NCBI GenBank assembly: GCA_022574595.1
Contig: JACZRS010000016.1
Coordinates: 5,589-69,588, forward strand
Source of the DNA: Planctomycetota bacterium
GTDB taxonomy: Bacteria; Planctomycetota; Phycisphaerae; Phycisphaerales; SM1A02
Direction: 5' to 3'
Length of the DNA stretch: 64,000 bases
Position numbers and translations under genes: made by a program. Under the pieces are notes generated by a model that was given only the letters and a program-made list of their open reading frames with translations, did not search any database and had not been told where the DNA came from. This document shows positions 13,319 through 58,926 of the stretch, piece by piece; within the stretch, counting starts at the first letter, position 1; every line of letters begins with the position of its first letter.

Positions 13319-13510
13319 AGCGTAGACGATGCTTAGTACTGGCTAGGCATAAGTTTAATTCCAGGAACTAAAGAATAAGAGCAAGTCGCTTGTATTTACT
13401 GAGCCGTTTACATCGAGATCTGCCAGGCAGCAACTATCGCATTGGCCCCATTCGGATAGCAATTGGATTAGGTCAGCTTCGTTAATAATGCCATCACGGT
13501 GTAAAATGTA

Positions 13511-15229
13511 TTACGGACACGGCCCCCAGTTGGCTAGGAGGATGAGAAGATCGCTCGTGCTTACGATGCCATCGCCGTCGAAATCAGGCGGGCCTTCGGG
13601 ATCAAAGCCCCACCAGCCTAGTAGGATCAACAAATCGCTGGTGCCAACGATACCATCTGCGTGCAAATCCCAGGGGCAAGTCTTGTTATGAAACTCATAT
13701 GCACCCATATCCACAATCGGCGGATCGCCGTTGCCGGTGTCTCTCGTAGCAGGGTCATCAACGAAACGTAGATTGCCGTCGAGATCGGTGTCGATTCCCT
13801 TCGGTACCGATGTGTTGTCTGCTGCATCGATACAGGGTGAGCCGGGTAACAATCGAAGATTTCCGTTCGCAGCACTGACAAACAGTGGATCTGCGTTGAT
13901 ATTACCACTGCCTGGCCATCCATCTTGCACACAACTGTAAGTTACTGTTGTTGTAGAGTTACCGTAATTTGATATCTCTGGGGATGTATTGTTGAACATG
14001 ATGCAGTTGACCAGCGAGGGATTGCTGTCGATGTTGAACAACCCGCCAGCTATCAAGCCTTCATTGTTGCTAAGCGTACAATTGATGAGAATTGGGTTAC
14101 TGTTAATTATGTTGTACATTACACCACCCCATGTCTCGGCGACGTTATCGTTGAACTTGCAGTTGATGATCGTGGGACTACTATTCGAGTTGTACATCCC
14201 GCCAGCCCAATTATTGGTTGAGTTTGCGCTAAACGTGCAGTTGACAATCGTTGGGCTACATACGTGTGAGTTGGCCATTCCGCCACCTATGTAAGCAATG
14301 TTTGCAAGGAACGCACAGTTGGTAACCGTCGGGTTGCTGCCGGAGTTGTTACTCATCCCACCGCCAGAGATTTCGGCTGAATTTCCGCTGAATTCACAGT
14401 TGCTAATAGTCGGGCTACTGACGTAGTTGTATAATCCTCCGCCTTCGCCATCGGCAGAATTACCACTAAACGTGCAATCGCTAATAGTCGGGTTACTGTG
14501 CAGGCGGTTGTACATCCCGCCGCCTATGTGCGCAATGTTTGTGTTGAACGTACAACTATTCATGGTCGGGCTGCCTTCAAGGTTGTAGATTCCGCCGCCT
14601 CTTTCCGCACTGTTTGTGGTGAATGTACAGTTGATTACCATCGGGTACCCTTGTTTATTGTACATTCCCGCTCCGAAAGCGTGTGAGAAATCCCCTTCAG
14701 CTTTGCCGGCAGTGATGATGAATCCATCAATGACAGCGCTATTGTCAGTAAAGCTACTAGTAACCACGTGATTGCTATTCTCATCATTGTTCTTGAAATC
14801 TACTTCATCATCGCCCAGTAGATCACCGCTGAGAATTGTTTCATATAACTCGATATCGCGATCATCTGGATCGGCTGCCCCGATGCCTGCATAGCCACCT
14901 AATAGAGATACGCCGTTTATTAGTTGGAATGTTCCTTCCCGGTTGCCATCACCTTTGGGATTGTTTTCACTGCGATCAGGCTTATATTCGCCTTGAGCAG
15001 TGCGAATCTCATTTACGCTATTTTCTGGTTCTACTGCAAACAACAGTGCATCTTGCAGAAAGCGGTATGCGGTCTCCCAAGAAAGGCCATCCCCGCCTGC
15101 TGGTGCATCGTCATCAACGTGAAGCACAATTTCGCCTACAGGACTCCCATTGCAATTCCCACTGAACCCGGCCATCAAAGAACACACTGCAAACGCAACG
15201 ATTCCAAACTGTCGTAACTTAATTACCAC
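13511..15229 (-). CDS. secreted right-handed parallel beta-helix repeat protein with the dockerin-like ANWGPCP C-terminal module
   Basis: signal peptide; VDDDAPAGGDGLSWETAYRFLQDAL beta-helix cap; >10 repeats of NCTFxxNxAxxGGGMYN; C-terminus CPWDLHADGIVGTSDLL...DFDGDGIVSTSDLLILLANWGPCP. Confidence 0.6.
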   Translation of the reverse strand: MVIKLRQFGIVAFAVCSLMAGFSGNCNGSPVGEIVLHVDDDAPAGGDGLSWETAYRFLQDALLFAVEPENSVNEIRTAQGEYKPDRSENNPKGDGNREGTFQLINGVSLLGGYAGIGAADPDDRDIELYETILSGDLLGDDEVDFKNNDENSNHVVTSSFTDNSAVIDGFIITAGKAEGDFSHAFGAGMYNKQGYPMVINCTFTTNSAERGGGIYNLEGSPTMNSCTFNTNIAHIGGGMYNRLHSNPTISDCTFSGNSADGEGGGLYNYVSSPTISNCEFSGNSAEISGGGMSNNSGSNPTVTNCAFLANIAYIGGGMANSHVCSPTIVNCTFSANSTNNWAGGMYNSNSSPTIINCKFNDNVAETWGGVMYNIINSNPILINCTLSNNEGLIAGGLFNIDSNPSLVNCIMFNNTSPEISNYGNSTTTVTYSCVQDGWPGSGNINADPLFVSAANGNLRLLPGSPCIDAADNTSVPKGIDTDLDGNLRFVDDPATRDTGNGDPPIVDMGAYEFHNKTCPWDLHADGIVGTSDLLILLGWWGFDPEGPPDFDGDGIVSTSDLLILLANWGPCP

Positions 15230-15526
15230 AACGACCTCCCTGCACTACTGCGCAAGAGAAAGACATAAGGCTGCGCTACGTATTACTTTGGACGACACAG
15301 TCCATACCGATAGCGAACTAGCCTCTTTGCGAAACACAAACACAAATTGTCAATCGAAAAGGTAAAATAATGTTGCCGGAGAACCCGGCGGATAAGTGCA
15401 ATACAAGTATAAAAATAGTCCCAATTCGATCACAGCGGTATATCTACCGCCGCCAGAAGCCTACCTCGACAATACCAAAGTGGCAAGCGAAAGTCCGAAA
15501 ATAATCAAGCTTTTAGCCTCCAAGAC

Positions 15527-17107
15527 TCATTCCCACTCAATTGTCGCTGGTGGTTTGCTGGAAATGTCGTACACCACGCGGTTTACGCCTCGCACTTCGT
15601 TGATGATGCGGTTGCTAACTGTTGCGAGCACATCGTAGGGAATACGCGCCCAATCTGCGGTCATGAAATCCTGTGTTTCGACTGCTCGAACAGCTATTAC
15701 TGATTGATATGATCTGCCATCACCCATCACCCCAACTGTCTGAATTGGTAATAGCACAGCAAAAACCTGGTCTGTGCTGCGATACAAATTGTTGGCGATG
15801 ATTTCCTCTAGCAGGATTTCATCACAATCACGGAGCAATTCCAATCGTTCATCAGTAATCTCGCCAATTATTCGAACCGCAAGTCCAGGGCCGGGAAATG
15901 GATGACGCCAAACTATGTGTGGCGGTAAGCCCAGCACATCACCAAGCTGTCTTACTTCATCCTTAAACAAATTTCGCAAGGGTTCTATAAGTTCAAAGCC
16001 GAGATCTTTGGGTAGACCACCGACGTTGTGATGCAGTTTAATATTTGCCGACACACCCGCCATGCCGTGGCCTGATTCGATCACATCGGGGTAGAGAGTG
16101 CCTTGCGCCAGGAACTTGACTTCCTCGCCAAGAGATTCCGCTGCTTCTTTGAAAACCTCAATAAAGCGATGGCCGATCTTCAAGCGTTTTTCCTGCGGAT
16201 CGGTAACGCCTTTTAGATCACTAAGAAACTCTTTGCTCGCATCAACTACTCTAAGGTCCGCTTTGAAATGATCTCGGAAAGTTGCTTCGACTAGTTGGCG
16301 TTCATTTTTTCGCAGCAAACCGTTATCAACAAAGATGCAGGTGAGCTGGTCACCGATAGCCCTTGCGAGTAGTGCTGCTACTACTGAAGAATCAACGCCG
16401 CCGCTTAGTCCGCAGATCACTCTGCCATTTCCAACTTTGTCTTTCACTTTTTGGCATTGAGTTTCGACAAAATCGGCCATGCTCCACGTGCCGGAACATT
16501 TACAAATCTCATAAATGAAATTGCGTAGTAAGTTCACACCATGTGGTGTATGGGTTACCTCAGGATGAAACTGTACGCCGTAGAATTTGACGGTCTTATG
16601 GCGAACCGCAGCGTGTGGACAGTTTGGAGTGCTTGCTATGGTGTCGAAATGCTCGGCAATGTCCGCCACGTTATCACCATGGCTGGCCCATACGGTTGTG
16701 TTGGTTGGAATATCCGCAAAGAGTCCATCGTGGTCGGATATGGTTAACTTTGCGCGGCCGAATTCTCGCGCCTCAGCCGCCGCCACCTCACAGCCGAGCA
16801 ATTGGCAACCGAGTTGCATGCCGTAGCAAATGCCTAATACGGGTATTTTCAGGTCAAAAAGTTTGTCATCGCAGCGCGGCGCCTGGCTCTCTGAGACACT
16901 CGCAGGCCCTCCGGAAAGAATTAGTCCTTTAGGATTTAGGGCCTTTAATTGGTCGATAGACGTATCTGGAGCCACTAGCAGGCTGAACGCACCCGCTTCT
17001 CGAACCCTTCTGGCTATTAACTGGGCATATTGTCCGCCGAAGTCGAGAACTACAATAACCTCAGCATGCGGTGGGATTTCCGCTGTGTCGAACATAGATC
17101 GTGGCAT
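15527..17107 (-). CDS. guaA: GMP synthase (glutamine-hydrolysing)
   Basis: GATase CYGMQL; PP-loop [10 protein letters not shown]; conserved C-terminal dimerisation region. Confidence 0.9.
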
Positions 17108-19513: not shown

Positions 19514-19717
19514 GTTATCAACTCACGCGGCATACCAGATGTCTGCGAGTCGCCCTGCCCTTGGGATCTTAATGCTGATGGTTCGGTAGGAACTGCGGAC
19601 CTCCTAATCATATTCGCGCAATGGGGTACAGATGGCCCCGCTGACTTCGACGAAAGCGGCGCTGTCGGAACCAGTGATCTACTAATCCTCTTCGCCAATT
19701 GGGGCCCGTGTCCGTAG
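19514..19717 (+). pseudogene. orphan fragment encoding only the dockerin-like C-terminal module (no start codon, no passenger domain)
   Basis: an in-frame TGA at 19511-19513 is followed by VINSRGIPDVCESPCPWDLNADGSVGTADLLIIFAQWGTDGPADFDESGAVGTSDLLILFANWGPCP*; the frame differs from ORF 19311-19589. Confidence 0.5.
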
Positions 19718-19743
19718 AAGAATGTACTAACACGAAAACACCC

Positions 19744-19859
19744 CACCTAGCTAACCAATTAGCGATTTGCATTGTTTAGTTGGCCTCTGAGTCGTTTAAT
19801 TAACGCAACGCTAGAAAATGCGAGCTACGCCCGTGTTTTTCGTGCAGGAATGGATGCTA
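19744..19859 (+). repeat. 116-nt direct repeat, copy 1
   Basis: about 83 % identical to 20183-20298; both copies begin ~30 nt after a stop codon. Confidence 0.7.
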
Positions 19860-19923
19860 GTGGGTGGTGGTTCCAGCGCTGGGCAGTGGGTTGGATTGCA
19901 ATGTGAGGTATAATCGCACAAAG

Positions 19924-20154
19924 ATGCTTGAAGCTGCCATCATCATTGCGTTGATTATCGTCGTCACGGCTACCGTCACAGTTGCGACTGCAGAAACATT
20001 CCGGTATTACCACTGTCCTGAATGTCGCAAGTATTGGGCATTGCGGAAAACAGGGAAAACCAAAGAAGGCCCCTCTCGGCGAAAGAAGGAGGAGTGGAGT
20101 TGTCGTTTCTGTGGTTTAACGGTGTGGAGAGACGAACGCCTTTTAGGTGCATAA
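19924..20154 (+). CDS. small membrane-anchored zinc-ribbon protein (~76 aa)
   Basis: one TM helix (LEAAIIIALIIVVTATVTVATA) then CPEC...CRFC; TATAAT sits 11 nt upstream of the ATG, suggesting a near-leaderless transcript. Confidence 0.4.
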   Translation: MLEAAIIIALIIVVTATVTVATAETFRYYHCPECRKYWALRKTGKTKEGPSRRKKEEWSCRFCGLTVWRDERLLGA

Positions 20155-20182
20155 GCCGCGCGATACTTTCAATATGCCGAGC

Positions 20183-20298
20183 CACCTAGCTACCCCTTTA
20201 GCGATTTGCCATTCCTAGACGGCCTCTGAGTCGTTTAATTGGTTCGACGCTAGAAAATGCGAGCTACACCGGACTTTTTCGTGCTGGAATGGATGCTA
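20183..20298 (+). repeat. 116-nt direct repeat, copy 2
   Basis: see copy 1. Confidence 0.7.
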
Positions 20299-20477
20299 AA
20301 GCAGGCAGGAATACCACAGAAACCATCAAATCATAACACTTGCTGAGAAACCTTCCAGTTAATGGTCTGGCGCGTTAGGATATTGGCGGTTGCCTGGGTG
20401 ACACTTGTCCACAGGGCCGACCACAGACTTGTTGCAGGTGCTACCTCTTCGCGACCTTTATCTTTCAAGGAGGCCCA

Positions 20478-21176
20478 ATGATGTACGCATACTCAGTCTC
20501 AACAAAAAGCTCAGTCGTCGTCGCCGCCGTAATCGCGCTTGTAGTGGTCATAAGCGGGCAGCGCGCCCAGGCCCAGCCCGGCACGGTGCTGTCCCACCAG
20601 AAGATCAGCGACACCCAGGGCTGCTTCACCGGCATCCTGGATGATCTCGACAACTTCGGCGTCTCGGTGGCCTCGCTGGGTGATCTCGACGGCGACGGCG
20701 TGGGCGACTTGGCCGTGGGGGCATACGCGGATGACGAAGGGGGCGGCGGCAATAACAACCGCGGCGCGGTGTGGATCCTGTTCCTCAACACCGACGGAAC
20801 GGTCAAATCCCACCAGAAGATCAGCGACACCCAAGGCGGCTTCAGCGGCGCGCTGGACGATTTCGATTACTTCGGCTGGTCGGTGGCTTCGCTGGGTGAT
20901 CTGGACGGCGATGGCGTGGGCGACCTGGCCGTGGGGGCACGTGGCGACGACGACGGGGGCGGGGACCGTGGTGCGGTGTGGATTCTGTTCCTTGATGGTG
21001 ATCTGCAGACTCCTTGCCCTTGGGATCTTGACAAGAGCGGATCCGTTGGCACAAGCGACCTTCTTGCACTCTTTGCACAATGGGGTACCGCAGGAGATGC
21101 AGACTTTGATGGCGATGGTGTTGTCAATACAGTCGATCTGCTCATCCTCTTCGCCAACTGGGGGCCGTGTCCGTAA
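20478..21176 (+). CDS. secreted FG-GAP (integrin-alpha-like) repeat protein with the dockerin-like ANWGPCP C-terminal module
   Basis: signal peptide; two FGxSVASLGDLDGDGVGDLAVGA FG-GAP repeats; C-terminal CPWDLDKSGSVGTSDLLALFAQWGT...DLLILFANWGPCP. Confidence 0.65.
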   Translation: MMYAYSVSTKSSVVVAAVIALVVVISGQRAQAQPGTVLSHQKISDTQGCFTGILDDLDNFGVSVASLGDLDGDGVGDLAVGAYADDEGGGGNNNRGAVWILFLNTDGTVKSHQKISDTQGGFSGALDDFDYFGWSVASLGDLDGDGVGDLAVGARGDDDGGGDRGAVWILFLDGDLQTPCPWDLDKSGSVGTSDLLALFAQWGTAGDADFDGDGVVNTVDLLILFANWGPCP

Positions 21177-21190
21177 AGTAGCTGCTCACT

Positions 21191-21868
21191 ATGAAGCAAT
21201 TCGCGACTACATTTACATTAATTGTTTTCGTATCACTCGTATTGGCCGGTTGCAAAGTATCTTCGCCGACGGTACACAGTGTTCCGAATAGCCAGCACGA
21301 TCACACTCGTGATGACGCTGATTCGATCTTGCACACACACGAGACATTGCCAGTTCTCTCCAATTGGTGTGATGATTGTAATTTCGGCTATGTCGCGGGG
21401 CAACGAATTTCTTCCAAGGTGCTATTTGAAACGCTCGACGCTCACGGCCACGATGTGAACATTGACGCAATGACCTGCGCGTCTTGCCTTACCGCGTTGC
21501 CTGTGGGCGGCTATTGCGAATCACACCGAATAGGATTCGTCGATAGCAAAGCGTACTTCTCACGCCTGACATACTCGCTAGCTAAAGGAGGCGAGGCTCG
21601 AAATGTTTCAAGCCTTACCTGCACCACTTGCCGCGCTAATGCTCAGGAACACGGGTGGTGCGCCGCATGCCAGATTGGAATGGTGGGCAACGTAGCATTC
21701 AAGAATCGAAATGAATACACAAATGCCGTTGAGCAGTTTTCAATCCTCAAGTCTGCAATAGACAAGACAGGTGACTGTGAGATGTGTGCCAGCGCCATGA
21801 TCCTCGACAGTAGGTGTCCCCTATGCAAGATAAGCTATCAAGATGGACAGCCGATCGCCAATCCCTGA
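21191..21868 (+). CDS. cysteine-rich lipoprotein with six CxxC motifs in a repeated zinc-ribbon-like arrangement
   Basis: lipobox LVLAGC; CDDC, CASC, CTTC, CAAC, CEMC, CPLC; three repeats of CxxC-x8-12-(Y/W/R)C-xx-(H/C)-x-I-(G/S); His-rich N-terminal segment. Confidence 0.5.
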   Translation: MKQFATTFTLIVFVSLVLAGCKVSSPTVHSVPNSQHDHTRDDADSILHTHETLPVLSNWCDDCNFGYVAGQRISSKVLFETLDAHGHDVNIDAMTCASCLTALPVGGYCESHRIGFVDSKAYFSRLTYSLAKGGEARNVSSLTCTTCRANAQEHGWCAACQIGMVGNVAFKNRNEYTNAVEQFSILKSAIDKTGDCEMCASAMILDSRCPLCKISYQDGQPIANP

Positions 21869-22004
21869 CGGCCAAGGATTTCACATGAAACGCCTTTGAG
21901 AATAAAAAAAAAGAAAAAATTACGCAATAATCTTGCAAGTAATAAACTTTTATGGGACATTGTCTATGGCCTAACAAGGCCACCAAATCAAATATAGCCC
22001 ATTC

Positions 22005-22697
22005 GTGGGCTTAGAGGAGTACATCATGCGTTTTTTCAGCCACTCGTTCTGCCGCTCGTTTTTCGCTATTGCGATTGTCGCATCCGCTGCCCCGATCGCG
22101 CTGGCTGGCTCTCATTCCTGGGATATAGTCGAGATTTTCAGCAATGCCGATGGATCCATCCAGTTCATTGAGATGATGGAAACCAACGCAATGCCAAATG
22201 AGATAAACTTGGCAGGCAAGCAGGTCACAAGCAATGCGAATGCCTTTACATTCCCCAGCAACCTTATACCACCCACTACAAACAAGCACTTGCTCCTGGC
22301 TACCGCAGATTTTGCTGCACTGCCTGGTGCGCCTACACCCGACTACATAATCAAAGCTGGCTTCTTTAATCCTAATGGCGATACTCTCATGTATCACACC
22401 TATGACATCTTCAGCTTTGGTCATGACGTATTACCGACTGATTGCATCAACTCACTAAATGGTGATGGTACAACTGGCGTTAACAATCCGGAGAATTACC
22501 AGGATGTTAAAGGAACGGTTGATGCCTGTCCTCCTTGCCCCTGGGATCTTGATGGCACAGGATCCGTCGGCACAGGCGATCTTCTTGAACTCTTCGCACA
22601 ATGGGGTACAGCAGGACCAGCCGACTTCGACGAAAGCGGTGCCGTCGGTACAAATGATCTACTAATCCTCTTCGCTAATTGGGGGCCGTGTAAATAA
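22005..22697 (+). CDS. secreted protein of unknown function with the dockerin-like ANWGPC C-terminal module
   Basis: signal peptide (AIAIVASAAPIALAGS); C-terminal CPPCPWDLDGTGSVGTGDLLELFAQWGTAGPADFDESGAVGTNDLLILFANWGPCK. Confidence 0.55.
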   Translation: MGLEEYIMRFFSHSFCRSFFAIAIVASAAPIALAGSHSWDIVEIFSNADGSIQFIEMMETNAMPNEINLAGKQVTSNANAFTFPSNLIPPTTNKHLLLATADFAALPGAPTPDYIIKAGFFNPNGDTLMYHTYDIFSFGHDVLPTDCINSLNGDGTTGVNNPENYQDVKGTVDACPPCPWDLDGTGSVGTGDLLELFAQWGTAGPADFDESGAVGTNDLLILFANWGPCK

Positions 22698-23031
22698 ATG
22701 AAGGCATCATGGCATCATTGCATCGAGTAAGCCGGACCTGAGGCTTTGTGAAGGTCCGGGTATGAACGACGAGTCATGAGCGGTGCGCCATAAAAGCACC
22801 AAGGCATCATGGCATCGTGGCACTGTGGATTAATGAGCCGTACCGATTACACCTGTCCCGATTCCATCGGGTTCGGTATCGGGATCGGGAATTTCGCTCA
22901 TGATATTTTCATAATTCCTCAGCAATCCCCTTGAGCCTAAACGAATTAGCATATTGTGAAGAGCTATATGTTGCTTTCCGTCAAAGCGGGGTGAAATCCC
23001 TATATCCAATAAAGTTTGATTCGATAGAGAA

Positions 23032-23054
23032 GAGAAGGTGTCTGACACCTTCTC
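23032..23054. repeat. palindrome GAGAAGGTGTC-T-GACACCTTCTC, copy 1, ~15 nt upstream of the RBS of gene 23069-23992
   Basis: 11-bp arms around a single central nt; the 19-nt core recurs at 58634-58652. Confidence 0.7.
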
Positions 23055-23068
23055 CTACCCCTGGAGGC

Positions 23069-23992
23069 ATGGATCATGAAACCACAGGCGTTGGAGCAGG
23101 CGTTCATGCAACTCCCGCGTGCTTCATCGGCGGCACTGCAGGGATATACTGGAATAATCCTGATCCTGATGAAGGATCGCTGCTAGATAAAGGCAGCTTT
23201 GCAACTTGGCAAGCAACAGGTATCAGTGATAGTGGGGGAATAGTTGGCTCTGTTTTTGACCCCGGACCCGATTCGGCTGCATATTGGCCAGATGTAACTG
23301 CCGCGCCAGTTGATATCGGATCAATAGTAGATGGAAATGGCGCTTCATACGCTCAGCGTATAAATAATAGAAATCCTGCAACTGAAGTCATAGCGGCTGT
23401 GGGTTGGAATACTGATTCAATAGGTGTAGCATTGCTGTGGGAATGTACAGGTAACTGTTCGGACCCACTTATGAACAACTGGTCATTTGAAATTCTCGAT
23501 CAGATTTTGTCAACTAACTGTACAGATTGGGATTTACGCCGCGCCTATGATGTAAAAGATGAGACTAGGATCATCGGCTGGGGGAGAAAGTTTGGCCAAC
23601 CCAACACAGAAAATGCTGTAATTCTTGTGCCCCTCGAGTTTTGCTGCATAGCTGACTTAGATGGCAACGGAACTGTCTCGACAAACGACCTGCTCATTCT
23701 CTTCGCCAATTGGGGGCCGTGCCCCGTTTCGCATGGGCCTTGCTGTGCCGACCTGAACAGTGACGGTACGGTGAACACGGAAGACTTACTGATTCTGCAA
23801 GCCAACTGGGGACCGTGCGGCGGTGAATCAGCCGGAGGCGGAGGCGGTGGATCGCCTTCACTTCAGGCAGCGGTCCAGCAATTAGGGTTTCCATCTGTGG
23901 CAGCCCATCAGGCGTGGCTGGCCCAGGCCGGTGAGATGGAAGCATACGTATCTACGTATGTACTCATCACGATTCTTCAAGACCAGGAGTAA
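23069..23992 (+). CDS. hypothetical protein with two tandem half-dockerin repeats (each ...DLLIL.ANWGPC), a Gly-rich linker and a C-terminal tail
   Basis: GGAGG RBS before the ATG at 23069; CIADLDGNGTVSTNDLLILFANWGPCPVSHGPCCADLNSDGTVNTEDLLILQANWGPC; no obvious signal peptide. Confidence 0.4.
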   Translation: MDHETTGVGAGVHATPACFIGGTAGIYWNNPDPDEGSLLDKGSFATWQATGISDSGGIVGSVFDPGPDSAAYWPDVTAAPVDIGSIVDGNGASYAQRINNRNPATEVIAAVGWNTDSIGVALLWECTGNCSDPLMNNWSFEILDQILSTNCTDWDLRRAYDVKDETRIIGWGRKFGQPNTENAVILVPLEFCCIADLDGNGTVSTNDLLILFANWGPCPVSHGPCCADLNSDGTVNTEDLLILQANWGPCGGESAGGGGGGSPSLQAAVQQLGFPSVAAHQAWLAQAGEMEAYVSTYVLITILQDQE

Positions 23993-24032
23993 TCACCACT
24001 GAGCCTATTGATAGGCTTGTTTTTGGCTTCCA

Positions 24033-24064
24033 GGAGCCTCGCAGGGAGGCGAGGCTCCTTTTTT
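24033..24064 (+). terminator. rho-independent terminator
   Basis: GGAGCCTCGC-agggag-GCGAGGCTCC followed by TTTTTT; preceded by a second small hairpin plus T5 at 24002-24025. Confidence 0.7.
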
Positions 24065-24144
24065 CAGTAATTTTGAGATTTTTCATACAAAGCGCGCAGG
24101 ATTTGACAAGAAACGGCGTATAGACCAGTGGAAGTAGAATTAAT

Positions 24145-25803
24145 TTGATTGGCGAGGTATTTGATATGTTCAAAATACGTAAGCGAAACAGCAAGCGAGC
24201 CGGGGCGTTCCCGCCCCGAGTCTCACACAAATTAAGTGCAAGCGTCGCACCCCACTCACTCGCCTTGGGGACAAGGCGGCTCGCCGCCACTTTTCTTGCT
24301 TGTATATGCGTTTGTTCTCTACCCGCAACAGCTCAGTGTCTGCCCGAGGAGCTGCAAAAATTAACAGCATCCGATCCGAGTCTTGGCGACCACTTTGGAA
24401 CTTCTGTTCTAATTCACGGCGATTTGGCAATTGTCGGGGCCGCCAGTGCAAATATTAATCCGCTTACTGCTGGTGCTGCATATACGTATCGCAAGGATCC
24501 CATTACAAACCAATGGATACAGGAGCAAAAAGTATTTTCAGATGATGGTACTTCTTGGGATGGATTTGCACTGTCCATGGCCATCAATCCTGTTGACCCC
24601 AATGTGATAATAATTGGAGCTTGGGCGGAAGATGATGCTCCTGATTGCAAGAGCATATCCTGTCAATCAGGGGCAGCCTATATCTTCCGTTTCGATCCCG
24701 ATCTGGGCCTTTGGATCCAGGAGCAAAAGCTCACCGCTTCCGATGCTGACAGCCAGGATTACTTCGGTTGGGCGGTTTCGATCTGGGGAGATGTTGCAAT
24801 CATTGGAGCTAGACTCGATGAGGATTCGCATCAAGGTAGTGGTTCAGCTTATGTCTTTCGCTATAACTCTAATTCGGGTATTTGGTATGAACAGCAAAAA
24901 CTGATTCCACCAGATCCGGGTGCGCTAGGCACATCTATCTCCCTTAAAGATAATGTTGTTCTAATCGGTGCTTCTGCAGATCAGGAATTCGGACTTGGAT
25001 CAGGTGCAGCTTACATTTACCGCATGGATCCTGACACCCAAATCTGGGCGCTGGAGCAAAAACTTGTGCCAAATGATCCTGTGATAGGAGCTTCATTCGG
25101 TTGGTCTGCTTCTTTGGACGGTAACACAGCCCTCATCGCAGCACCGGGAGCGGATGGCAAACAGTTCCTTGAAGGAGCGGCGTATGTATTTACCTATAAC
25201 GGCCAGCAATGGACACAACAACAAAAACTATTTGCTTCGGATGGCGAACCACTCGATACATTCGGCAGAACAGTCTCCCTAGCAGGTAACGCAGCAGTAG
25301 TTGCTGCTATCTTAGATGAGGTTGATGGACAGACCGTAGGTTCAACTTACATATTCACTTTCGATTCCCAAGAATGGAACGAAACCGCCAAGCTCTATGC
25401 ATCTGATTCTGGGAGATCCGAAGCCTTTGCCTTTGGCACACACGCAGCCACCGATGGCGAGAACGTTATAGTCGGAGCCAACTTCGCGTTCATTGATGGC
25501 CACAACGAAGCAGGAGCTGCATACATCTTCGGCGGACTAGGTGATTGCAACAACAACGGCATAATCGATATCTGCGATATCGCAGATGGCAACGCAACCG
25601 ACAAGAACAACAACGGCTTACCTGATGAGTGCGATCAACCACCTTGTCCATGGGATATGGACAACACCGGCAGCGTCGGCGTCGGCGACCTACTCATGAT
25701 GTTCGCACAATGGGGAACCCCCGGCCCAGCAGATTTTAACAACGACGGCATAGTCAATACATCAGACCTGCTAATCCTCCTAGCTAACTGGGGGCCGTGC
25801 TGA
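24145..25803 (+). CDS. secreted FG-GAP-like beta-propeller repeat protein with the dockerin-like ANWGPC C-terminal module; possible Tat signal
   Basis: TRRLAATFLAC twin-arginine-like signal; at least 7 repeats of FGxSVxxxGDxAxIGA...GAAYxF; C-terminal PPCPWDMDNTGSVGVGDLLMMFAQWGTPGPADFNNDGIVNTSDLLILLANWGPC. Confidence 0.6.
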   Translation: MIGEVFDMFKIRKRNSKRAGAFPPRVSHKLSASVAPHSLALGTRRLAATFLACICVCSLPATAQCLPEELQKLTASDPSLGDHFGTSVLIHGDLAIVGAASANINPLTAGAAYTYRKDPITNQWIQEQKVFSDDGTSWDGFALSMAINPVDPNVIIIGAWAEDDAPDCKSISCQSGAAYIFRFDPDLGLWIQEQKLTASDADSQDYFGWAVSIWGDVAIIGARLDEDSHQGSGSAYVFRYNSNSGIWYEQQKLIPPDPGALGTSISLKDNVVLIGASADQEFGLGSGAAYIYRMDPDTQIWALEQKLVPNDPVIGASFGWSASLDGNTALIAAPGADGKQFLEGAAYVFTYNGQQWTQQQKLFASDGEPLDTFGRTVSLAGNAAVVAAILDEVDGQTVGSTYIFTFDSQEWNETAKLYASDSGRSEAFAFGTHAATDGENVIVGANFAFIDGHNEAGAAYIFGGLGDCNNNGIIDICDIADGNATDKNNNGLPDECDQPPCPWDMDNTGSVGVGDLLMMFAQWGTPGPADFNNDGIVNTSDLLILLANWGPC

Positions 25804-25850
25804 GTTGAAAGTAACCACGCACTAAAGCTTGAAACATAGTATTAAGAAAA

Positions 25851-25878
25851 GGCCGCTTCCGATTGGAAGCGGCCTTAT
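25851..25878. terminator. bidirectional rho-independent terminator between convergent genes
   Basis: perfect 10-bp stem GGCCGCTTCC-gatt-GGAAGCGGCC with A/T runs on both sides. Confidence 0.65.
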
Positions 25879-25902
25879 AATAATTCAAAACTACTAGCGG
25901 TG

Positions 25903-28900
25903 TTACTTGTCGCTATTGGGTTCAAAGAACCTAAACGGGAAAGCGCCTCCGCCACCAATATCATCGGTGTTGTAAATGTAATCTGCATCAAGCGACTTGG
26001 TAATTCGAACTTTCGCCTCACTTAGATGTGCGATGGTGTAAGGATCGACTGTGCGTCCACCATTATTAAGTAGATGCTCAATCTTATCGTTTAGCTCACG
26101 AAGTTTGAAGGTGCTGAGGTTGGCGATGGGTTGAGCGGTTGCGCCAAAGCCTTCATCCAGCATGCTTAGATCAATTAGCCTATTTAAGTGTTCACGCTGC
26201 AAATTACGCCTCAAACTTGAGATCATGGGTTTACGCACGGTGAAACTACTGTCGGGCACGATATCCAATTCTGACCAAATAGCATCAGAAATACCAAAGA
26301 TCACCTCCGGCAATGTCACGGCATCTTCATCTGATGGGATTCTAAATTCCGTGTCATATATGCGGTTAAGCGTAGTTGGATTCATTAACAAAGTTAAGGC
26401 AACGGACTGTATTGACTTAATGCGATCATGCACGGGCCAGGTTGGATCTTCAAAGATCGCCCTGAAGCCACCTTCATCCCACCATTTGTCAACAGTCATC
26501 TTGGCTAAGAGTTCAGAATTCAAACCGTAAGCTTCATCCTTAAAAGCGTTGTCAATAACGAATTGCAATGCGCGACGCTGCTTGGCAGTTTCAACTGGAA
26601 CGACTGGATCGCGCTCACCAGGATCACCTTTACGATCACGATTGACGTATGAGCTACCAAGCCAATTTGCTGCTATTGCGATCGAACCGAAATGCCTTCC
26701 CAGCAGGATTTCATAGGCTTCACGCGCCTTGGCCCAACTGTCACCATCTTTTACGATCTTCTCAAGGATTCTTGTACGAAGATGCTGGGCTATTCTCATC
26801 TGAGAATCAGCATAATCCAGCGGATCCGAACCGTAATCAAATCTACGTGCCAATGGATCTGGACCCCAAGTATCTTCATCAGTTGCGTATGGAAGATTCT
26901 TTTCTGATACACGCTTAAGGATTGGTTTTAGATCCTTGTCAAAGGTGTAACCATACTCGATAGCCCAATAGTCGTAATCGCCTATTGTTACCATGGTGTA
27001 ATCACCTTGCACCGGACCATCATTGAAATTTATATTGATGGGGTTGTAATCCATCACCGAAGCGGTCTGGGCTTTACCCTTAAACTCTTCAGTGTTGATT
27101 TCCTGGATGGAATGGATACTTGAAGCTTTGAAATTGTGACGAAGTCCCAGCGTGTGACCAACTTCATGCATAATAACATCTTTTAGCAATGGGCCTATGA
27201 ATGATTCAGGAACTCCATCAAGAAGTTGGACTTCATCCTTCTTTTTTTCGTCCTTCTTCTTGTCGTCCTTTTCAGCGTCCTCATCATCATCCTCATCCTC
27301 ATTCTCATCGTCTTTGCCTTCACCATCGTCATCTTCATCGTCATCGTCATCTTGTTCCTGAGCAAGCTCAGCGAACCAAGATGGATCAAGGCGATACAAA
27401 GCAATATCCATAGACTTTGCCATGGCTTGCATACAAGCACCGTTTACCTGACTAACTTGGCCATACAATCCATCAAACTGATCATCGCCGAGCAATGTGT
27501 GGTCTACGCTAGCGGCTGGATGCCCACTAAACTCGTTGGAACTGCGCATCGCTCTCTTCATAGCAAGTTCACGAACAACGCCTGACCGCTCTGCTGGTGA
27601 GGCTAGTAGAACGCGCGGATCCCACTGCGGATTATTTTCAAGCCAGGCATAAGTCTGCGGACCGAAGCCTTCCATGGCAATTTCCGGCATTAGCTTCTTC
27701 CAAGTACGCGCCCAACTTGTAATAAACCCTTCATCCATCACAATGTCAGCATCAAAGATCTGGCCAGTTCTCGGATCAACTCTGCTTGGGCCTATTGCGA
27801 ATCCCATTCCTGCGTTGGTCCATAGAACAAAGTTATAGCGCGCATCTTCCGGATCTTTTTCCATATGCGCTTTGCTTCGTGCATCCTGTTGATAAACCTC
27901 AATAGCGTTTATGATACCGATCTTCTCAAATGCCTTGTTCCATTCCAACACACCTTCACGCACCCAACGTCGGTAACGAACTGGAAGAGTGTGCTCGAGA
28001 TAGAAAATTATTGGCTCTTTGGGAGGGCTTAATCGCAGCTTGGTATCTGCTTTTTCAAGCATCCATCGATTTACGTAGCGGACCCAAGGCGTATCAGCAC
28101 CGGGATTGCCGAGATCGCGATGAGTAGTAGTAAAATAGCCAATCCTTGCATCGGCTTTGCGCGACTTGTAACCAGTTTTGTTGGGAATAACGCTTATTGA
28201 ATAATGTATGGTTCCAAATCTTCCGCCACTTAAAGGCAGCTCAAAAGCAATCTCTACATTCTTGGGAAAAGCCTTGGCCTTGGCGATAGTTACTAAATTT
28301 CGGTTTGCGCCCGATAGTATGCGGCTACCAAAGAATTTAGAGCCTTGGCCAATTAGAAGCGCATCCATATCGATAACCGGTCCACCTTTCTTGCCTTTGG
28401 CAATTATTGGCACATCAAGTAGGACGCGATCGGTAAAGACGCGTTCTTTACCTTTTCTAGATTCAAGATCGCCGGTAGTTCTTACTGAAAAGTTTGGCTG
28501 AATCAACGCTATGCGCTTGTCATACTTTTTCCATTTGACGTATTGCGCACCAAACTGAACGCCAGCTGTGGGGATACCTCCGGATACCGTATAGGCAATA
28601 AACAGCAGTTGCTTCTCAAAGTTGCTGGGCAATTCCGCAAGCATTTGCCCGTCTTTCTTGCGTATCCAAAGCGTATAGAGGCTCGCTTGACCGTCGGCTG
28701 TCGATACAACCTTTGTGTAGTCCTTGGCTACATCTTCAAACTTTGGCAGTTCCCCTTTTTTCGAGCTTTTTGCATCAGCCATTTTCTTCATTTGTTCTTT
28801 AATATCTGGAGGCGCACCTCGTTGGCTCATGGCTGAGGTGGTGATCGCTCCAGCAGCTGCAAACGCTATTAACGTGCTTGCTCGACTCCCCAAGATAATA

Positions 28901-28944
28901 CGTTTAATTTTATTGCTCATTGACTTCATGGGAGGCTCCTCCAT
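25903..28944 (-). CDS. secreted zinc metalloprotease (metzincin-like HEVGHTLGLRH motif; resembles the DUF4953/DUF5117 zinc-protease architecture) with a poly-acidic/basic low-complexity linker
   Basis: signal peptide; HEVGHTLGLRHNF zinc-binding motif; DDDDDEDDDGEGKDDENEDEDDDEDAEKDDKKKDEKKKDE insert. Confidence 0.6.
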   Translation of the reverse strand: MEEPPMKSMSNKIKRIILGSRASTLIAFAAAGAITTSAMSQRGAPPDIKEQMKKMADAKSSKKGELPKFEDVAKDYTKVVSTADGQASLYTLWIRKKDGQMLAELPSNFEKQLLFIAYTVSGGIPTAGVQFGAQYVKWKKYDKRIALIQPNFSVRTTGDLESRKGKERVFTDRVLLDVPIIAKGKKGGPVIDMDALLIGQGSKFFGSRILSGANRNLVTIAKAKAFPKNVEIAFELPLSGGRFGTIHYSISVIPNKTGYKSRKADARIGYFTTTHRDLGNPGADTPWVRYVNRWMLEKADTKLRLSPPKEPIIFYLEHTLPVRYRRWVREGVLEWNKAFEKIGIINAIEVYQQDARSKAHMEKDPEDARYNFVLWTNAGMGFAIGPSRVDPRTGQIFDADIVMDEGFITSWARTWKKLMPEIAMEGFGPQTYAWLENNPQWDPRVLLASPAERSGVVRELAMKRAMRSSNEFSGHPAASVDHTLLGDDQFDGLYGQVSQVNGACMQAMAKSMDIALYRLDPSWFAELAQEQDDDDDEDDDGEGKDDENEDEDDDEDAEKDDKKKDEKKKDEVQLLDGVPESFIGPLLKDVIMHEVGHTLGLRHNFKASSIHSIQEINTEEFKGKAQTASVMDYNPININFNDGPVQGDYTMVTIGDYDYWAIEYGYTFDKDLKPILKRVSEKNLPYATDEDTWGPDPLARRFDYGSDPLDYADSQMRIAQHLRTRILEKIVKDGDSWAKAREAYEILLGRHFGSIAIAANWLGSSYVNRDRKGDPGERDPVVPVETAKQRRALQFVIDNAFKDEAYGLNSELLAKMTVDKWWDEGGFRAIFEDPTWPVHDRIKSIQSVALTLLMNPTTLNRIYDTEFRIPSDEDAVTLPEVIFGISDAIWSELDIVPDSSFTVRKPMISSLRRNLQREHLNRLIDLSMLDEGFGATAQPIANLSTFKLRELNDKIEHLLNNGGRTVDPYTIAHLSEAKVRITKSLDADYIYNTDDIGGGGAFPFRFFEPNSDK

Positions 28945-29341
28945 CGGATATTTCTAGAAGCTATGTCGCAGTTAGATGAGCTATTTGATTCGAACTGAGA
29001 CGGGCGTATTCAGAGAACGGGTAACTTGTAACATAACATAAGCATATCAAAGTACTTAATGTGCGTATGAAACCTAGGCCTTGCGGCATGGCATATGCCA
29101 AATATACACGAAGAACCCCATGCGTACACCTACTTTTTGAGGCAGAATGGGTATGTCGAAGGAATAGATTGGTTTGTCAGAGTCATGGTATGAGGTTATC
29201 TGCCATGCTGAAAAGGCGTTATCTAGCTAATCTACCTGTTTCTCCTAATTTCTGCGTGTTTTGCCAGGGTTTTTTGGCTACTTTTATAGGTAATGCCTGT
29301 ATATTTAGCCTACGCTGGTTTCTGGCGGAAGTGCAGTATAA

Positions 29342-38312: not shown

Positions 38313-38654
38313 GCAAGTATTTTAGCATCACAATAGCTAAACGCCATTTCGCATATCAATCCCCTCCCCGACGCCAATGGATAGCAATCCATTGGGTTTC
38401 CCATAGAGTTGATATGTATTGCATGGCGCAATGGGCAGCACTTGGTATACGAGCGCGAACCGGGTTGACACAACCCGGCTCGCTGTAGCATAAATATCCG
38501 CTACAATCACGTAGTGAACAAGATCGAGAGACTTGATCACATACCCGATCGCTGAACAGCTCAAATGTAACGGCACGAAAGAACGTTGCATATAACAACT
38601 TGAGCGGAATGTCTGAATGTACTGGAGAGCATAACGACACAGGAGTAGCGTGCT

Positions 38655-38852
38655 ATGACGAAGGCTGAAACGAACATCGCCATGGTAGTCCTAATGATAG
38701 GAGGTCCTATCGTCGGAGGCCTTGTCGTTCGTGGGGAGACCGACAACCCCGTGCTGATGCTCGTAGGAGTTGTTATTGCGTTCGGGTCGTGGGTGATCGC
38801 CATCACCTTGGGCAAGAAGAAGCCGACGGATAGCAATGGGGGAAACGAATGA
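38655..38852 (+). CDS. small hydrophobic protein (65 aa, 2 TM)
   Basis: ORF plus hydrophobicity only. Confidence 0.25.
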   Translation: MTKAETNIAMVVLMIGGPIVGGLVVRGETDNPVLMLVGVVIAFGSWVIAITLGKKKPTDSNGGNE

Positions 38853-38977
38853 CAAATGAAGAGCAGGGACAGTAGGGTTGCGCGGAGCGCGTTCGGAGTA
38901 CCACCGCACTGAATAGTCTACAATGTCTGTATAGTCCACATGTTTCTAGTAGAACTGCTTATTGTCCTGCTTCTATA

Positions 38978-39024
38978 TATTAGGGACAGTCACCTATTAA
39001 TTAAATAGGTGACTGTCCCTAATA
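38978..39024. repeat. perfect 21-bp inverted repeat (TATTAGGGACAGTCACCTATT / AATAGGTGACTGTCCCTAATA) with a 5-nt spacer, located between convergent genes
   Basis: read directly; flanked by AT-rich sequence; candidate bidirectional terminator or protein-binding site. Confidence 0.6.
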
Positions 39025-39073
39025 TAATATCGCTTTGTCATGGCCTACTGGCAAACCAGGCTAAACCTTTGCA

Positions 39074-52811: not shown

Positions 52812-52814
52812 TAC

Positions 52815-54917: not shown

Positions 54918-55630
54918 CGCAATCTTCTGATCTCCAATGATTTAACTGCTGCGATTAAAAACACAACTGTAAGAGAAAGGAAATACACTATATTAGATGT
55001 GTCAATTAGCCCAATCCCAAAATCACGAAGTCGAATGTCCGGATCAAGGGAAATAACTATCTGAGCCCAATCTTCCCCAAGCCTGGCTGGAAGCAATTTT
55101 GTCCCGACAGTCAAGCCCATCCAGAAGAATACCGCTAATAAAAACGCAACAACCTGGCTTGAGGTTAAGGTTGATGCCAATATCCCAGCTGCTAAGTAGG
55201 CACTACCTGCTAACAACACACCTAAGTATCCACAAAGAAGTTCGCCATAATCAGGCCTGCCATAAATCTCCAGCGCAAAAGCATAAATCGCAGTCGGCAG
55301 CAAAATCACAACAAGAAAACCTAGCGCGCCGAAGAATTTACCCACCACTACCTGCCGTTCATTTACAGGTGTTGTCATTAATGCTTCATAAGTACCGCTG
55401 CGGAATTCTTCACTAAATGTTCGCATGGCAATTGCTGGACATATAAAGAGTAACACCCACGTAATGACCTCAAATGTTGGGCGAAGCGATGCGGTTTGCC
55501 CTTGATCAAACCCGCCGAACGAAAACAGAAAACCAGTTATTACCAGAAACAGCGCAGAGATAACATAACCACCCGGCGAAAGTAAATATGCAGGTAGTTC
55601 GCGCGCAGCAATCGTAATGGTTCTGCTCAC
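54914..55630 (-). CDS. ABC-2 type transporter permease (GldF-like)
   Basis: six TM segments; overlapping stop and start with its neighbours. Confidence 0.6.
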   Translation of the reverse strand: MSRTITIAARELPAYLLSPGGYVISALFLVITGFLFSFGGFDQGQTASLRPTFEVITWVLLFICPAIAMRTFSEEFRSGTYEALMTTPVNERQVVVGKFFGALGFLVVILLPTAIYAFALEIYGRPDYGELLCGYLGVLLAGSAYLAAGILASTLTSSQVVAFLLAVFFWMGLTVGTKLLPARLGEDWAQIVISLDPDIRLRDFGIGLIDTSNIVYFLSLTVVFLIAAVKSLEIRRLR

Positions 55631-56598: not shown

Positions 56599-56846
56599 GC
56601 CAATGCGACTGTACTACAACCAGTTTCCAAAGCCGGTGGCCAATACAATCCACCAAGCGTTACATAAACAGGTCGGATTCTTCTGTACCCCCAGGCGTGA
56701 TTTGTTCATTCTCCGTCTGGACCCAATCTTGTCAAGAAGCCGACATATCACTTCATCGGTAATAATAGCGGTTTACCAGTTGGAATCGTACGCCATTGGT
56801 AGTAAACTAGCTCGTTTATCAAAGGGGATGTCTTCGTTAACTGCCA

Positions 56847-58550
56847 ATGACTAAAAGTCGTCCAAGGCTGATACTTTTGCCCGGTGACTCGCCCATCGAC
56901 CCACACCTGTTGGAATCGTTGCGGTCTGTCTTTAAGATCGCTATTGCCAAGGATCATGCCCATGCCAACCAGCTAGCCAAGAAAGATCCCAAAGCGTTGG
57001 TTCTCTCCTCATCTTCGCAGCTTCGTTCAATTATTGGCTCTGCCGATGCGGAAGATGCCCACGCCTCCACTCAAGACCTAGGCGACGGCATGGGAGTAGT
57101 AAGCCAAGATGGTGAGCTGAAATGGACCAATTCACGACTTAAACAATTCAGCCAACAAGTCCGCCATAAGTTTTCCGAATTATGCTGCGAATCCATCGAG
57201 CTGTTTAACGAAGCAAGGAATTTTGATGATCAAGATGCTGAAAGTAACAACTCTCATCGATTCTCATTCCAGGCCGACTCAAGGCATTATGAACTAGTGG
57301 TGTCTCCTGCCTCTTCAAGTCTGGCAAAACCCGAACAAGTAGATTCAGTAATCGGTGTACTTTGGGATGTAACTGCAAGTAGGCGCATACTTGACAAGCT
57401 CGATGCAGTAGACGCTGGAGGATCAGATTTACTCCGCTTTGAACCGGAAATGATCACAAAGCTAAACGCTGCGGAACGGTTAAAAATCCTTGAACAAAAA
57501 ATTGCTCTACAAATTAAAGAACTACTAGGTTTTGATAGTTTTCAAATTCGCTTGATTGATCGCGAAACCAATCGACTCGAACTTGTCATGTTTGAGGGAA
57601 TTGCACCGGAAAGAATCGGCGAGGCTATCTATCCCGAATTACAAGGTAACGGAATCACCGGCCACGTCGCAGCTTCAGGGCAAAGCTACATCTGCACCGA
57701 TGTAAAGGTTGACCCGCTATACCGCGAAGGCCTCGATGATGCAGCAAGCTCGCTCACAGTGCCCTTAAGGCTGCATGATAAAGTCATTGGGGTTTTTAAT
57801 ATCGAATCCGATCGCACAGATCGATTTGATGAAAATGATAGGAGATTCGCCACACTCTTTGGACGCTACGTTGCCATGGCCATGAACATTTTAGATCTGC
57901 TCGTTGCTGAACGATACACCACTAATGAACAAATGTCGCGCACAGTTCTAGGCGAACTGGCAGATCCGATCGCTGAAATAAACGATCAAGCACTCGCTAT
58001 GAGGAAAACTGGAGCAAGTATTGATACGCTTAACTCCGGCTTAGATCACATTATTGATGCCACCGGCCGAATACTACGAAAAGTCGAATCCTGCACTTCT
58101 GGTCCACGCACTATCTTAGGAGCTGAACATGAGCTGCAATGGGGTGAGCCTGATCCACAAATGAAGGGCAAGCGAATTCTTGTCGCAGATGATGATAAAA
58201 CTATCCGCACATCAGTAGAAGCACTACTAACACATAAAGGGTGCAGCGTAATTGTTTGTGAAGATGGCACTCAAACTTTAGAAAGACTTAAAGAAGCAGA
58301 TGATGCTAAGACAGGTTTCGATCTTGTTATCTCCGACATAAAAATGCCAGGCCACAGCGGTTATGAAGTGTTCGTCTTATCAAAAGAGCTTTCACCCGAT
58401 ACACCGGTAATCCTAATGACCGGCTTCGGCTACGACCCCCACCACTCCATAGTCCGCGCCTCCCAACAAGGCTTACAGTCATTTCTATTCAAACCCTTCA
58501 AAGCCACACAACTTATAGAGGAAGTTAAGAAGGCGCTGGTAGACGCGTAA
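56847..58550 (+). CDS. GAF-domain response regulator (C-terminal receiver domain)
   Basis: central GAF-like region (GITGHVAASGQSYICTD...VIGVFNIESD); C-terminal REC domain ILVADDD...DLVISDIKMPG...K. Confidence 0.6.
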   Translation: MTKSRPRLILLPGDSPIDPHLLESLRSVFKIAIAKDHAHANQLAKKDPKALVLSSSSQLRSIIGSADAEDAHASTQDLGDGMGVVSQDGELKWTNSRLKQFSQQVRHKFSELCCESIELFNEARNFDDQDAESNNSHRFSFQADSRHYELVVSPASSSLAKPEQVDSVIGVLWDVTASRRILDKLDAVDAGGSDLLRFEPEMITKLNAAERLKILEQKIALQIKELLGFDSFQIRLIDRETNRLELVMFEGIAPERIGEAIYPELQGNGITGHVAASGQSYICTDVKVDPLYREGLDDAASSLTVPLRLHDKVIGVFNIESDRTDRFDENDRRFATLFGRYVAMAMNILDLLVAERYTTNEQMSRTVLGELADPIAEINDQALAMRKTGASIDTLNSGLDHIIDATGRILRKVESCTSGPRTILGAEHELQWGEPDPQMKGKRILVADDDKTIRTSVEALLTHKGCSVIVCEDGTQTLERLKEADDAKTGFDLVISDIKMPGHSGYEVFVLSKELSPDTPVILMTGFGYDPHHSIVRASQQGLQSFLFKPFKATQLIEEVKKALVDA

Positions 58551-58633
58551 TAGCTTCGCATTGATCGCAAACAAACCAATCGACGCCCCCAGATAGCAAT
58601 CAGTGAGGTTTACTTCAACGACTGCAAAAAGGC

Positions 58634-58652
58634 GAAGGTGTCTGACACCTTC
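58634..58652. repeat. palindrome GAAGGTGTC-T-GACACCTTC, copy 2, flanked by 37-nt direct repeats (58568-58604 and 58676-58712) and a tandem CACCTTCACCTTGCC x2
   Basis: read directly from sequence. Confidence 0.7.
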
Positions 58653-58926
58653 ACCTTGCCCACCTTCACCTTGCCCAAACAAACCAATCGACGCCCGCGG
58701 ATAGCAATCCGTAGGATCTTCATTATTATTGCCTCTCTCCATTTTCTATGGCTCGTTCACAGGTTCGCAAGAGTAGGTAGTATGTGTATTCGATACACTA
58801 GTAAGTAAGTAGATGATTACTCGTCCAACAGTGAGTGACAGTCCGGTATGCCACTGATGGAAAATCGGACGTGTATAAACTCCACTACAATTCAGGCTTA
58901 GCATTGACCTCGAGACCTGATTTTAG

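Follow-up and report, generated by a model that had tools for sequence, protein, structure and literature searches.

A REP-like palindromic element family in a clade of Planctomycetota and its copies in a 64-kb genomic window

Here we report a family of short palindromic elements, similar to repetitive extragenic palindromic (REP) sequences, that spans a clade of Planctomycetota and is represented in a 64,000-nt stretch of a Planctomycetota bacterium (contig JACZRS010000016.1; hereafter the window). A first-pass annotation of the window had listed four intergenic copies of a 10-nt motif (GGATAGCAAT), one of them upstream of the gene ggt, and had proposed either a site for a dimeric regulator or a REP-like extragenic repeat. 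Three of the four listed copies are genuine members of the family, and the motif covers the loop and the upper part of the stem in a palindromic element of 31–33 nt with the consensus C-GACG-CCCAsGGAT-AGCA-ATCCsTGGG-yTTCT, which is composed of a 5' tag, a 9-bp stem, a 4-nt loop and a pyrimidine-rich tail. We consider it likely that the element is a dispersed repeat of the type of REPs or Rickettsia palindromic elements (RPEs), whose transcript would form a hairpin at the 3' end of mRNAs. The second of the two earlier proposals is supported by the many dispersed loci, the compensatory changes in the stem, the preference for positions after genes and the in-frame copies within genes.

Structure, distribution and window copies

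The 21-nt pattern CGACGCC-N4-GATAGCAATC, which is shared by three copies in the window, was used to scan 185,579 species-representative genomes, a collection from whose size about 70 chance matches are expected (own arithmetic). The scan returned 67 loci, about 45 of them from a handful of Planctomycetota metagenome-assembled genomes (MAGs), with approximately 11 pattern matches in JADFNO, 13 in CBDUST and 12 in JAWXBB, 4 in JACZXL and 3 in JADFGE. In all matches from the Planctomycetota MAGs, the four free bases and the bases that follow complete a perfect hairpin; the scattered matches in other phyla form none. A scan of metagenomes with the same pattern yielded 85 loci with the same split into hairpin and non-hairpin matches, and metagenome contigs of low GC content (43–49%) carry window-like copies of the form CGACGCC-yATGGAT-AGCA-ATCCATrGG-GTTC. 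Two matches on viral contigs lacked the hairpin and were hence dismissed as chance. Within the MAGs, the flanks of the copies are mutually unrelated, which counts against a descent of all copies by segmental duplication of flanking DNA.

A covariance model (R1) was built and searched against the collected loci (designated by L numbers), where it recovered variants with the loops ACCA, TGCA and flipped TGCT, the upper stem GGGT/ACCC and the tags CAACG, GGACG and CGAAG. After removal of copies with near-identical flanks, 81 non-redundant copies remained. The loop is AGCA in 73 and the tag CGACG in 71 of these, a near-invariance that arises partly by construction since the seed pattern fixed CGACGCC and GATAGCAATC. 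A search of the whole window against Rfam at gathering score matched no family, searches with lax E-values around the window copies and the array in L018 gave only noise, and a tRNA/tmRNA search found none. No paper with the exact sequence of the element was found in the searched literature, and the family appears to be undescribed as such.

The two arms of the stem covary. Among 44 copies, 98.2% of the stem cells are paired, and double-sided changes occur in four of the nine stem pairs; stem position 5 is CG in 23 copies, GC in 16 and UA in 4. None of 500 shuffles reached the observed values, which collapsed in controls with slid pairing partners. The stem variants CAC/GTG, CAG/CTG, CAT/ATG, TAT/ATA and AAT/ATT are found across lineages of 44–68% GC. 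Tag and tail pair in part (G–Y in 36, A–T in 33 and G–C in 30 of the 44 copies, with a C·T mismatch kept in 33), so the unit is an interrupted palindrome of about 31 nt. The C at tail position 4, conserved in 30 of the 44 copies, pairs with the tag. The first-pass annotation had named CGACGCC and CCAAT as frequently preceding the motif. CGACGCC is part of the pattern shared by the three window copies. CCAAT is not characteristic of the family; in the 44 copies, the 6 nt that precede the tag show no more than a richness in C.

The sequences of all listed motif sites were found at their positions. The window has four exact matches to GGATAGCAAT (13454, 38379, 38828 and 58699) against 0.08 expected from shuffles, and the listed site at 58591 is a match with one mismatch. 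The 21-nt pattern is present three times (38369, 58581 and 58689, all on the forward strand) against 0.00 expected, and a covariance-model search of the window with filters off matched the same three positions only. The bare 10-mer with at most one mismatch (7 against 4.76 expected) and GGAT-N4-ATCC by itself (3 against 0.94) are not enriched. A chance recurrence of a short word could be argued from the one-mismatch count and from the site at 13454, which is probably a chance match. However, the counts of the exact 10-mer and the 21-nt pattern refute it for the three core copies, and the covarying stems of dozens of copies found in related genomes leave this explanation with next to no credibility.

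The copies differ in their state of preservation (Table 1). The RNA of the 38369 copy folds with -14.3 kcal/mol into a 9-bp stem, in agreement with the palindrome with 9-bp arms that had been noted upstream of ggt, and that of the 58689 copy folds with -10 kcal/mol and one internal mismatch. The 58581 copy retains tag and loop, but three stem pairs are broken and its minimum-energy fold contains no hairpin. The two latter copies lie within 37-nt direct repeats (58568–58604 and 58676–58712; 92% identical, period 108 nt). Since they belong to one tandem duplication, the window holds two independent loci rather than the four separate copies that had been counted.

The motif at 38828 had been overlooked; it sits inside an open reading frame (ORF) of 65 aa (38655–38852). 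The surrounding 21 nt have no 3' arm, do not fold and are not matched by the covariance model. They lie at the 3' end of the ORF, which there reads ...PTDSNG... in the same frame as the intragenic copies that encode TPRDSNPWAS (see below). The site, which matches the 5' half of the element only, may be a relic of a family copy.

The site at 13454 is not a member. Nor is it cleanly intergenic, as all four sites had been said to be; it is located, in antisense, within the decayed remnant of a dockerin-like ORF (13355–13462, reverse strand) that reads LLSEWGQC... This remnant is an extra dockerin-like copy that follows the stop codon of the gene at 13511–15229. Many dockerin-like repeats (D..DG.V...DLL.LL.NWGPC) are present at the C-termini of secreted proteins encoded at 19551–31023 of the window. 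The kinship proposed for a site at 7334–7347, on a putative small-RNA promoter, also fell away: CGGATAATTATCCG at 7335 has no family feature besides GGAT/ATCC and no match to the covariance model.

Table 1. Positions of family copies, related sites and the adjacent response-regulator gene in the window
Feature	Position	Strand	Basis	Parts or remarks
Intact family copy	38369..38400	+	Pattern match; covariance model 52.8 bits	Tag CGACG 38369-38373; 5' arm CCAATGGAT 38374-38382; loop AGCA 38383-38386; 3' arm ATCCATTGG 38387-38395; tail GTTTC 38396-38400
Slightly degenerate family copy	58689..58720	+	Pattern match; covariance model 47 bits	Tag CGACG; 5' arm CCCGCGGAT; loop AGCA; 3' arm ATCCGTAGG; tail ATCTT
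Decayed family copy	58581..58612	+	Covariance model 42.8 bits	Three non-pairs
Tandem duplication giving the 58581 and 58689 copies	58568..58712	+	37-nt direct repeats	
Possible 5' half-copy relic AGAAGCCGACGGATAGCAATG (uncertain)	38818..38838	+	3-mismatch match to the 21-nt pattern; exact 10-mer	
Non-member	13454..13463	+	Exact 10-mer only	No CGACGCC tag, no 3' arm, no fold, no covariance-model match
Non-member GGATAATTATCC	7335..7346	+	GGAT/ATCC the sole likeness	
Response-regulator gene (GAF and receiver domains)	56847..58550	+	Pfam	

Positions relative to genes

Genes around the copies were called with our own codon-usage score trained on the long ORFs of the collected loci, which is crude, notably at 60–68% GC. 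Both neighbours were called for 46 copies, of which 24 are in sense and 8 in antisense orientation between co-directional genes, while 11 lie between convergent and 3 between divergent genes. By our own arithmetic, the excess of sense over antisense copies has a two-sided binomial p of about 0.007, and that of convergent over divergent positions (11:3) a p of about 0.06. The median distance from the stop codon of a co-directional upstream gene is 27 nt, with 32 of 41 copies at no more than 55 nt, and for many copies the next co-directional gene follows at less than 60 nt. Among the 25 Pfam families shown for 90 neighbouring genes, there are housekeeping families only.

Most copies thus lie shortly after stop codons in sense orientation, as do plain intrinsic (Rho-independent) terminators, which could be alike through duplication or convergence of one efficient hairpin and would require no mobile-element biology. 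The GC-rich 9-bp hairpin with its T-rich tail (consensus TTTCT), the tail-to-tail pairs between convergent genes (L077 and L128) and textbook cases such as L003 (...CGTGGGTTTTTTT) are in line with such an origin. However, at least five T within the 8 nt after the stem are found in only 15 of 44 copies (34%), and a simple terminator scan passes none of the three window copies. The conserved C at tail position 4, which pairs with the tag, is not needed by a plain U-tract, and termination requires neither the tag CGACG nor the loop AGCA, although both are conserved. The eight antisense copies between co-directional genes, the many copies close before the next co-directional gene and the in-frame copies in essential genes, where a terminator would be harmful, also argue against plain terminators, which we judge an unlikely explanation.

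The duplicated copies at 58581 and 58689 start 30 and 138 nt, respectively, after the stop codon of the response-regulator gene, the 58689 copy in sense orientation. Orthologues of this gene with 65% (L161) and 67% (L162 and L163) identity have an intact copy at the corresponding place, 16–50 nt after the stop codon. The downstream neighbour is YceI in L161 and AbiGi in the window; the contigs of L162 and L163 end inside the element. As the copy is kept while the downstream neighbour differs, the element is tied to the upstream gene and remains at its 3' end. Orthologues with 57% identity, in which the next gene abuts, have no copy. The pair at 58581 and 58689 goes back to one old copy that was duplicated and is in decay, and it marks where the response-regulator gene ends. 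The gene that follows it in the window (58927–59679) encodes an AbiGi-like protein (abortive-infection antitoxin family), in place of which the orthologous loci have other neighbours.

Homologous sites in related MAGs (85–100% flank identity) are nearly always filled. Head-to-tail arrays occur in L018 (period of about 114 nt), in L106 (40 nt) and in the window (108 nt). Across the loci with tandem units (L018 5890–6270; L106; L047, L115 and L083; L161 1920–1960), the copy number of arrays differs between related contigs, one array unit has the flipped loop TGCT, and tag-only tandem repeats (CCGGACGCCCCCC, three times) are also present. These observations point to slippage or template switching at the hairpin. 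A number of contigs break off within the element.

Fourteen copies fall within called ORFs; some of these reflect ORF calls that are over-extended at the 5' end, and others are genuine in-frame insertions. A giant uvrA gene has four model matches within one gene, which encode peptides of the type RRPGIAIPGLP (in-frame loci L013 1–4605 and L141 3790–9009). Further in-frame copies in housekeeping genes are located in L022, L056, L011 and L058/L090. The gene of a class-V aminotransferase (cysteine desulfurase) has an in-frame copy that is translated into TTPRDSNPWAS, that of a class-I aminoacyl-tRNA synthetase contains an in-frame copy in antisense orientation (KEAQGLLSLGVA), and genes of LipB and of a DsbD-like protein also have in-frame copies. 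The encoded peptide varies with frame and strand (RRPGIAIPGLP, TPRDSNPWAS or QGLLSLGVG); five of the six reading frames of the element are open, and the sixth stops at the TAG of the loop.

An alignment of 17 cysteine desulfurase orthologues showed the insert of 10–12 residues (TPRDSNPWAS) in the closest relatives only. It decays with distance and is gone in orthologues with 66–75% identity. The in-frame palindrome is therefore missing from distant orthologues, as in RPEs, although its size of about 33 nt is unlike theirs. A lipoprotein gene in L006 (6427–6903; signal peptide and LxGC lipobox) ends at the TAG of the element loop with the reading ...TDAHG-stop, so that the repeat supplies its stop codon; L115 and L134 retain this reading.

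The 38369 copy is one of the three exceptions in divergent position. It is antisense to ggt and extends from 88 to 57 nt upstream of the ggt start. Its palindromic sequence, about 65 nt before the start codon, speaks for the proposed operator of a dimeric transcription factor with GGAT-N4-ATCC half-sites, which would control ggt and other genes. At a related locus (L156) that encodes a GGT with 92% identity, a 371-aa gene and ggt are separated by 77 nt, as opposed to 761 nt in the window, and the approximately 685 nt that are extra in the window contain the copy. The last 45 nt or so before the ggt start (TAAAATACTTGCATG and the part preceding it) are conserved between the two loci, and so are the -10 region and the leader of ggt, while the element is absent from L156. 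No family copy was found in 50 kb around three ggt orthologues.

Because the element is missing from the locus of the 92% identical orthologue, the 38369 copy is not a conserved part of ggt control; it is an intact copy inside a lineage-specific insertion and probably plays no role in this control. The operator reading is further contradicted by stem arms that keep their complementarity but not their sequence, by the low number of copies in divergent position (3 of 46), by the location of most copies after stop codons and of some within genes, and by the unrelated nature of the site at 7335. We regard it as very improbable, and a candidate regulatory site is thereby removed from ggt. Readings of the motif as a sigma-70, sigma-54 or ECF promoter were also rejected, as spacing and hexamers misfit (by eye) and a promoter scan placed nothing on the motif.

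The family copy lies at the ggt-proximal edge of the extra stretch of about 685 nt, which may be a small inserted module. Between 38400 and 39060, the window contains the 65-aa ORF mentioned above, which encodes a two-helix membrane protein, and a perfect 23-nt inverted repeat (38976–38998 and 39004–39026).

Mode of action and relation to known repeats

Our preferred explanation, a REP- or RPE-like element with a hairpin at the 3' end of mRNAs, would account for the observations as follows. Copies would arise by a REP-, RPE- or MITE-like (miniature inverted-repeat transposable element) copying process at many unrelated sites, including in-frame positions in genes, and a single-strand-specific enzyme of the HUH/Y1 type is suspected as the copying agent. 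They would survive mainly in sense orientation, from a few nt to about 55 nt downstream of stop codons. Transcription would include the element in the 3' end of the mRNA there, and its RNA would fold into a stable hairpin that is rich in GC and followed by pyrimidines. This structure would most likely act as a barrier to 3'-exonucleases and as a weak terminator.

Several points weigh against this explanation, among them the poor T-tracts, the negative terminator scan, the crude gene calls and the partly constructed conservation of tag and loop that were mentioned above. Among the stem pairs, G–U and A–C occur 6 and 2 times, respectively, a difference too slight to demonstrate strand-specific selection at the RNA level. 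The 38369 copy lies between divergent genes, so a role at 3' ends does not apply there. A search for empty orthologous sites among the collected loci gave no clean one and hence no recent insertion, only the tandem copy number being variable, and mobility is therefore deduced solely from the distribution of the copies. Most copies are singletons, and the inverted dimers typical of REPINs are not the rule. Finally, a six-frame scan of the collected loci and the window for the HUH...Y motif linked no transposase to the element.

The sole Y1_Tnp gene in the scanned loci (L026 4470–5105; Pfam E-value 1.5e-5) is flanked by its own 30-nt inverted repeats, which are unrelated to the hairpin element. 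This IS200-like gene (211 aa; L026 4433–5092), bracketed by perfect inverted repeats, is inserted between genes of an enoyl-CoA hydratase and a 3-hydroxyacyl-CoA dehydrogenase; the repeats have no other occurrence in the collected loci. A REP-associated tyrosine transposase (RAYT) flanked by inverted copies was considered at L006 (6888+ and 7778-) and rejected; the gene between the copies codes for a prepilin-like product, and both copies are 3' elements of genes in convergent arrangement.

The element might instead be a hairpin of RNA or single-stranded DNA that is bound by a protein, such as an RNA-binding protein, an RNase or a domesticated HUH endonuclease, and have a host function beyond that of a generic hairpin; tag, loop and upper stem would then be conserved for recognition. 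The same tag, upper stem GGAT/ATCC and loop AGCA recur in lineages of 44%–68% GC, whereas the stem covaries in its middle part, and tag and tail keep their C·T mismatch. Yet tag and loop were imposed on most copies by the seed pattern, the variants found by the model have other loops (ACCA, TGCA and TGCT) and altered tags, and no candidate protein was identified; we find this alternative rather improbable. A related idea, which we put forward with reserve as doubtful but conceivable, is that a conserved single-strand-specific enzyme or RNA-binding protein reads the tag, upper stem and loop of an RPE-like selfish hairpin throughout the Planctomycetota. If true, this would be an unrecognised partnership of the REP/transposase type in this phylum, with insertions of 11 codons into essential genes such as uvrA and with stop codons and 3' ends supplied to genes. 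A cognate enzyme, if it exists, would also offer a handle on the spread of REP-like elements that have no obvious RAYT.

RPEs, which Ogata et al. reportedly described in 2000, are in-frame palindromic repeats that add a short peptide in a tolerant loop of a protein and then decay; they measure about 100–150 nt and are known only from Rickettsia. The Planctomycetota element shares with them the in-frame insertion into protein genes but is much shorter (31–33 nt, about 11 codons). Families of sequence-conserved terminators, such as the mycobacterial TRIT motif or the pairs of DNA uptake sequences (DUS) in Neisseria terminators, are defined by their function in termination or DNA uptake. They resemble the element as repeated, sequence-conserved hairpins after genes; it differs from them by an often poor U-tract and by its antisense and intragenic copies. 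An integron attC site, a CRISPR repeat and a DNA-uptake sequence were rejected on the basis of size, the lack of arrays with cassettes or spacers, and structural covariation.

The closest parallels are found in the tagged REPs, which have stems of 8–9 bp with G–T pairs and loops of 4–5 nt, prefer unidirectional and convergent intergenic regions downstream of ORFs, and also occur inside genes, in particular those for replication and repair (Di Nocera et al. 2013, BMC Genomics 14:522, PMC3733652). The same study found no dedicated transposase for the CGTC REP super-family, equated the Rickettsia elements RPE-4 and RPE-6 with CGTC REPs, and reported only GTAG families (in R. baltica) and no CGTC REPs for Planctomycetes. 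Like the CGTC-tagged REPs (PMC3733652), the Planctomycetota element is a palindrome of about 30 nt with a 9-bp stem, a 4-nt loop and a conserved tetra- or pentanucleotide at one end. It also forms sub-families by complementary changes, has occasional G–T pairs, lies downstream of ORFs, and has intragenic copies in repair genes (here uvrA), and in the scanned loci no dedicated transposase was found for it.

In contrast to the unpaired CGTC of the CGTC REPs (with the variants TGTC and CCTC), its tag is CGAC(G) and partly paired with the 3' tail; its stem starts with CCC/GGG and its tail is yTTCT, whereas theirs have A–T pairs first and a CCA tail. Its units are mostly singletons or head-to-tail arrays rather than the head-to-head dimers of tagged REPs, and unlike GTAG REPs, it has no GTAG at either end. 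With the REPIN/RAYT system (Bertels & Rainey 2011, PMC3116915), it shares dispersed, vertically inherited hairpins that persist for long at orthologous sites, but no inverted-pair organisation and no RAYT flanked by the element were seen in the collected loci.

With its different tag, the family carries the tagged-REP picture into a phylum that has been little studied. For annotators of Planctomycetota MAGs, the consensus of 31–33 nt and the covariance model define a repeat family that explains recurrent intergenic hairpins, some contig breaks and some extended or odd ORF calls, as well as short in-frame peptides (RRPGIAIPG, TPRDSNPWAS and QGLLSLGVG) in housekeeping proteins.

Further features of the window

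A stretch at 7440–7520 of the window (forward strand) resembles the 3' half of a tRNA (...GGTCACTGGTTCGAGTCCAGTACGGCCCA). No matching 5' half is present, and ARAGORN predicted no tRNA there. Near window position 8000, the GC content drops from about 0.56 to about 0.46. The tRNA-like stretch and the GC drop could represent an integration scar (att) or the boundary of an island or of the assembly.

Another conserved repeat is found at 22703–22790 (forward strand) and 7558–7645 (reverse strand) of the window. Its sequence, AAGCCGGACCTGAGGCTTTGyGAAGrTCCGGGT..., contains the hairpin CCGGACC/GGTCCGG and had no match in Rfam. In the window, direct repeats GGCATCATGGCATC flank the two copies, whose sequences are 81% alike, and copies in a distant high-GC MAG (L027 460–510 and 588–621) are 90% alike. 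Repeats of the GGCATC type follow copies of the hairpin family in L100, L112 and L135.

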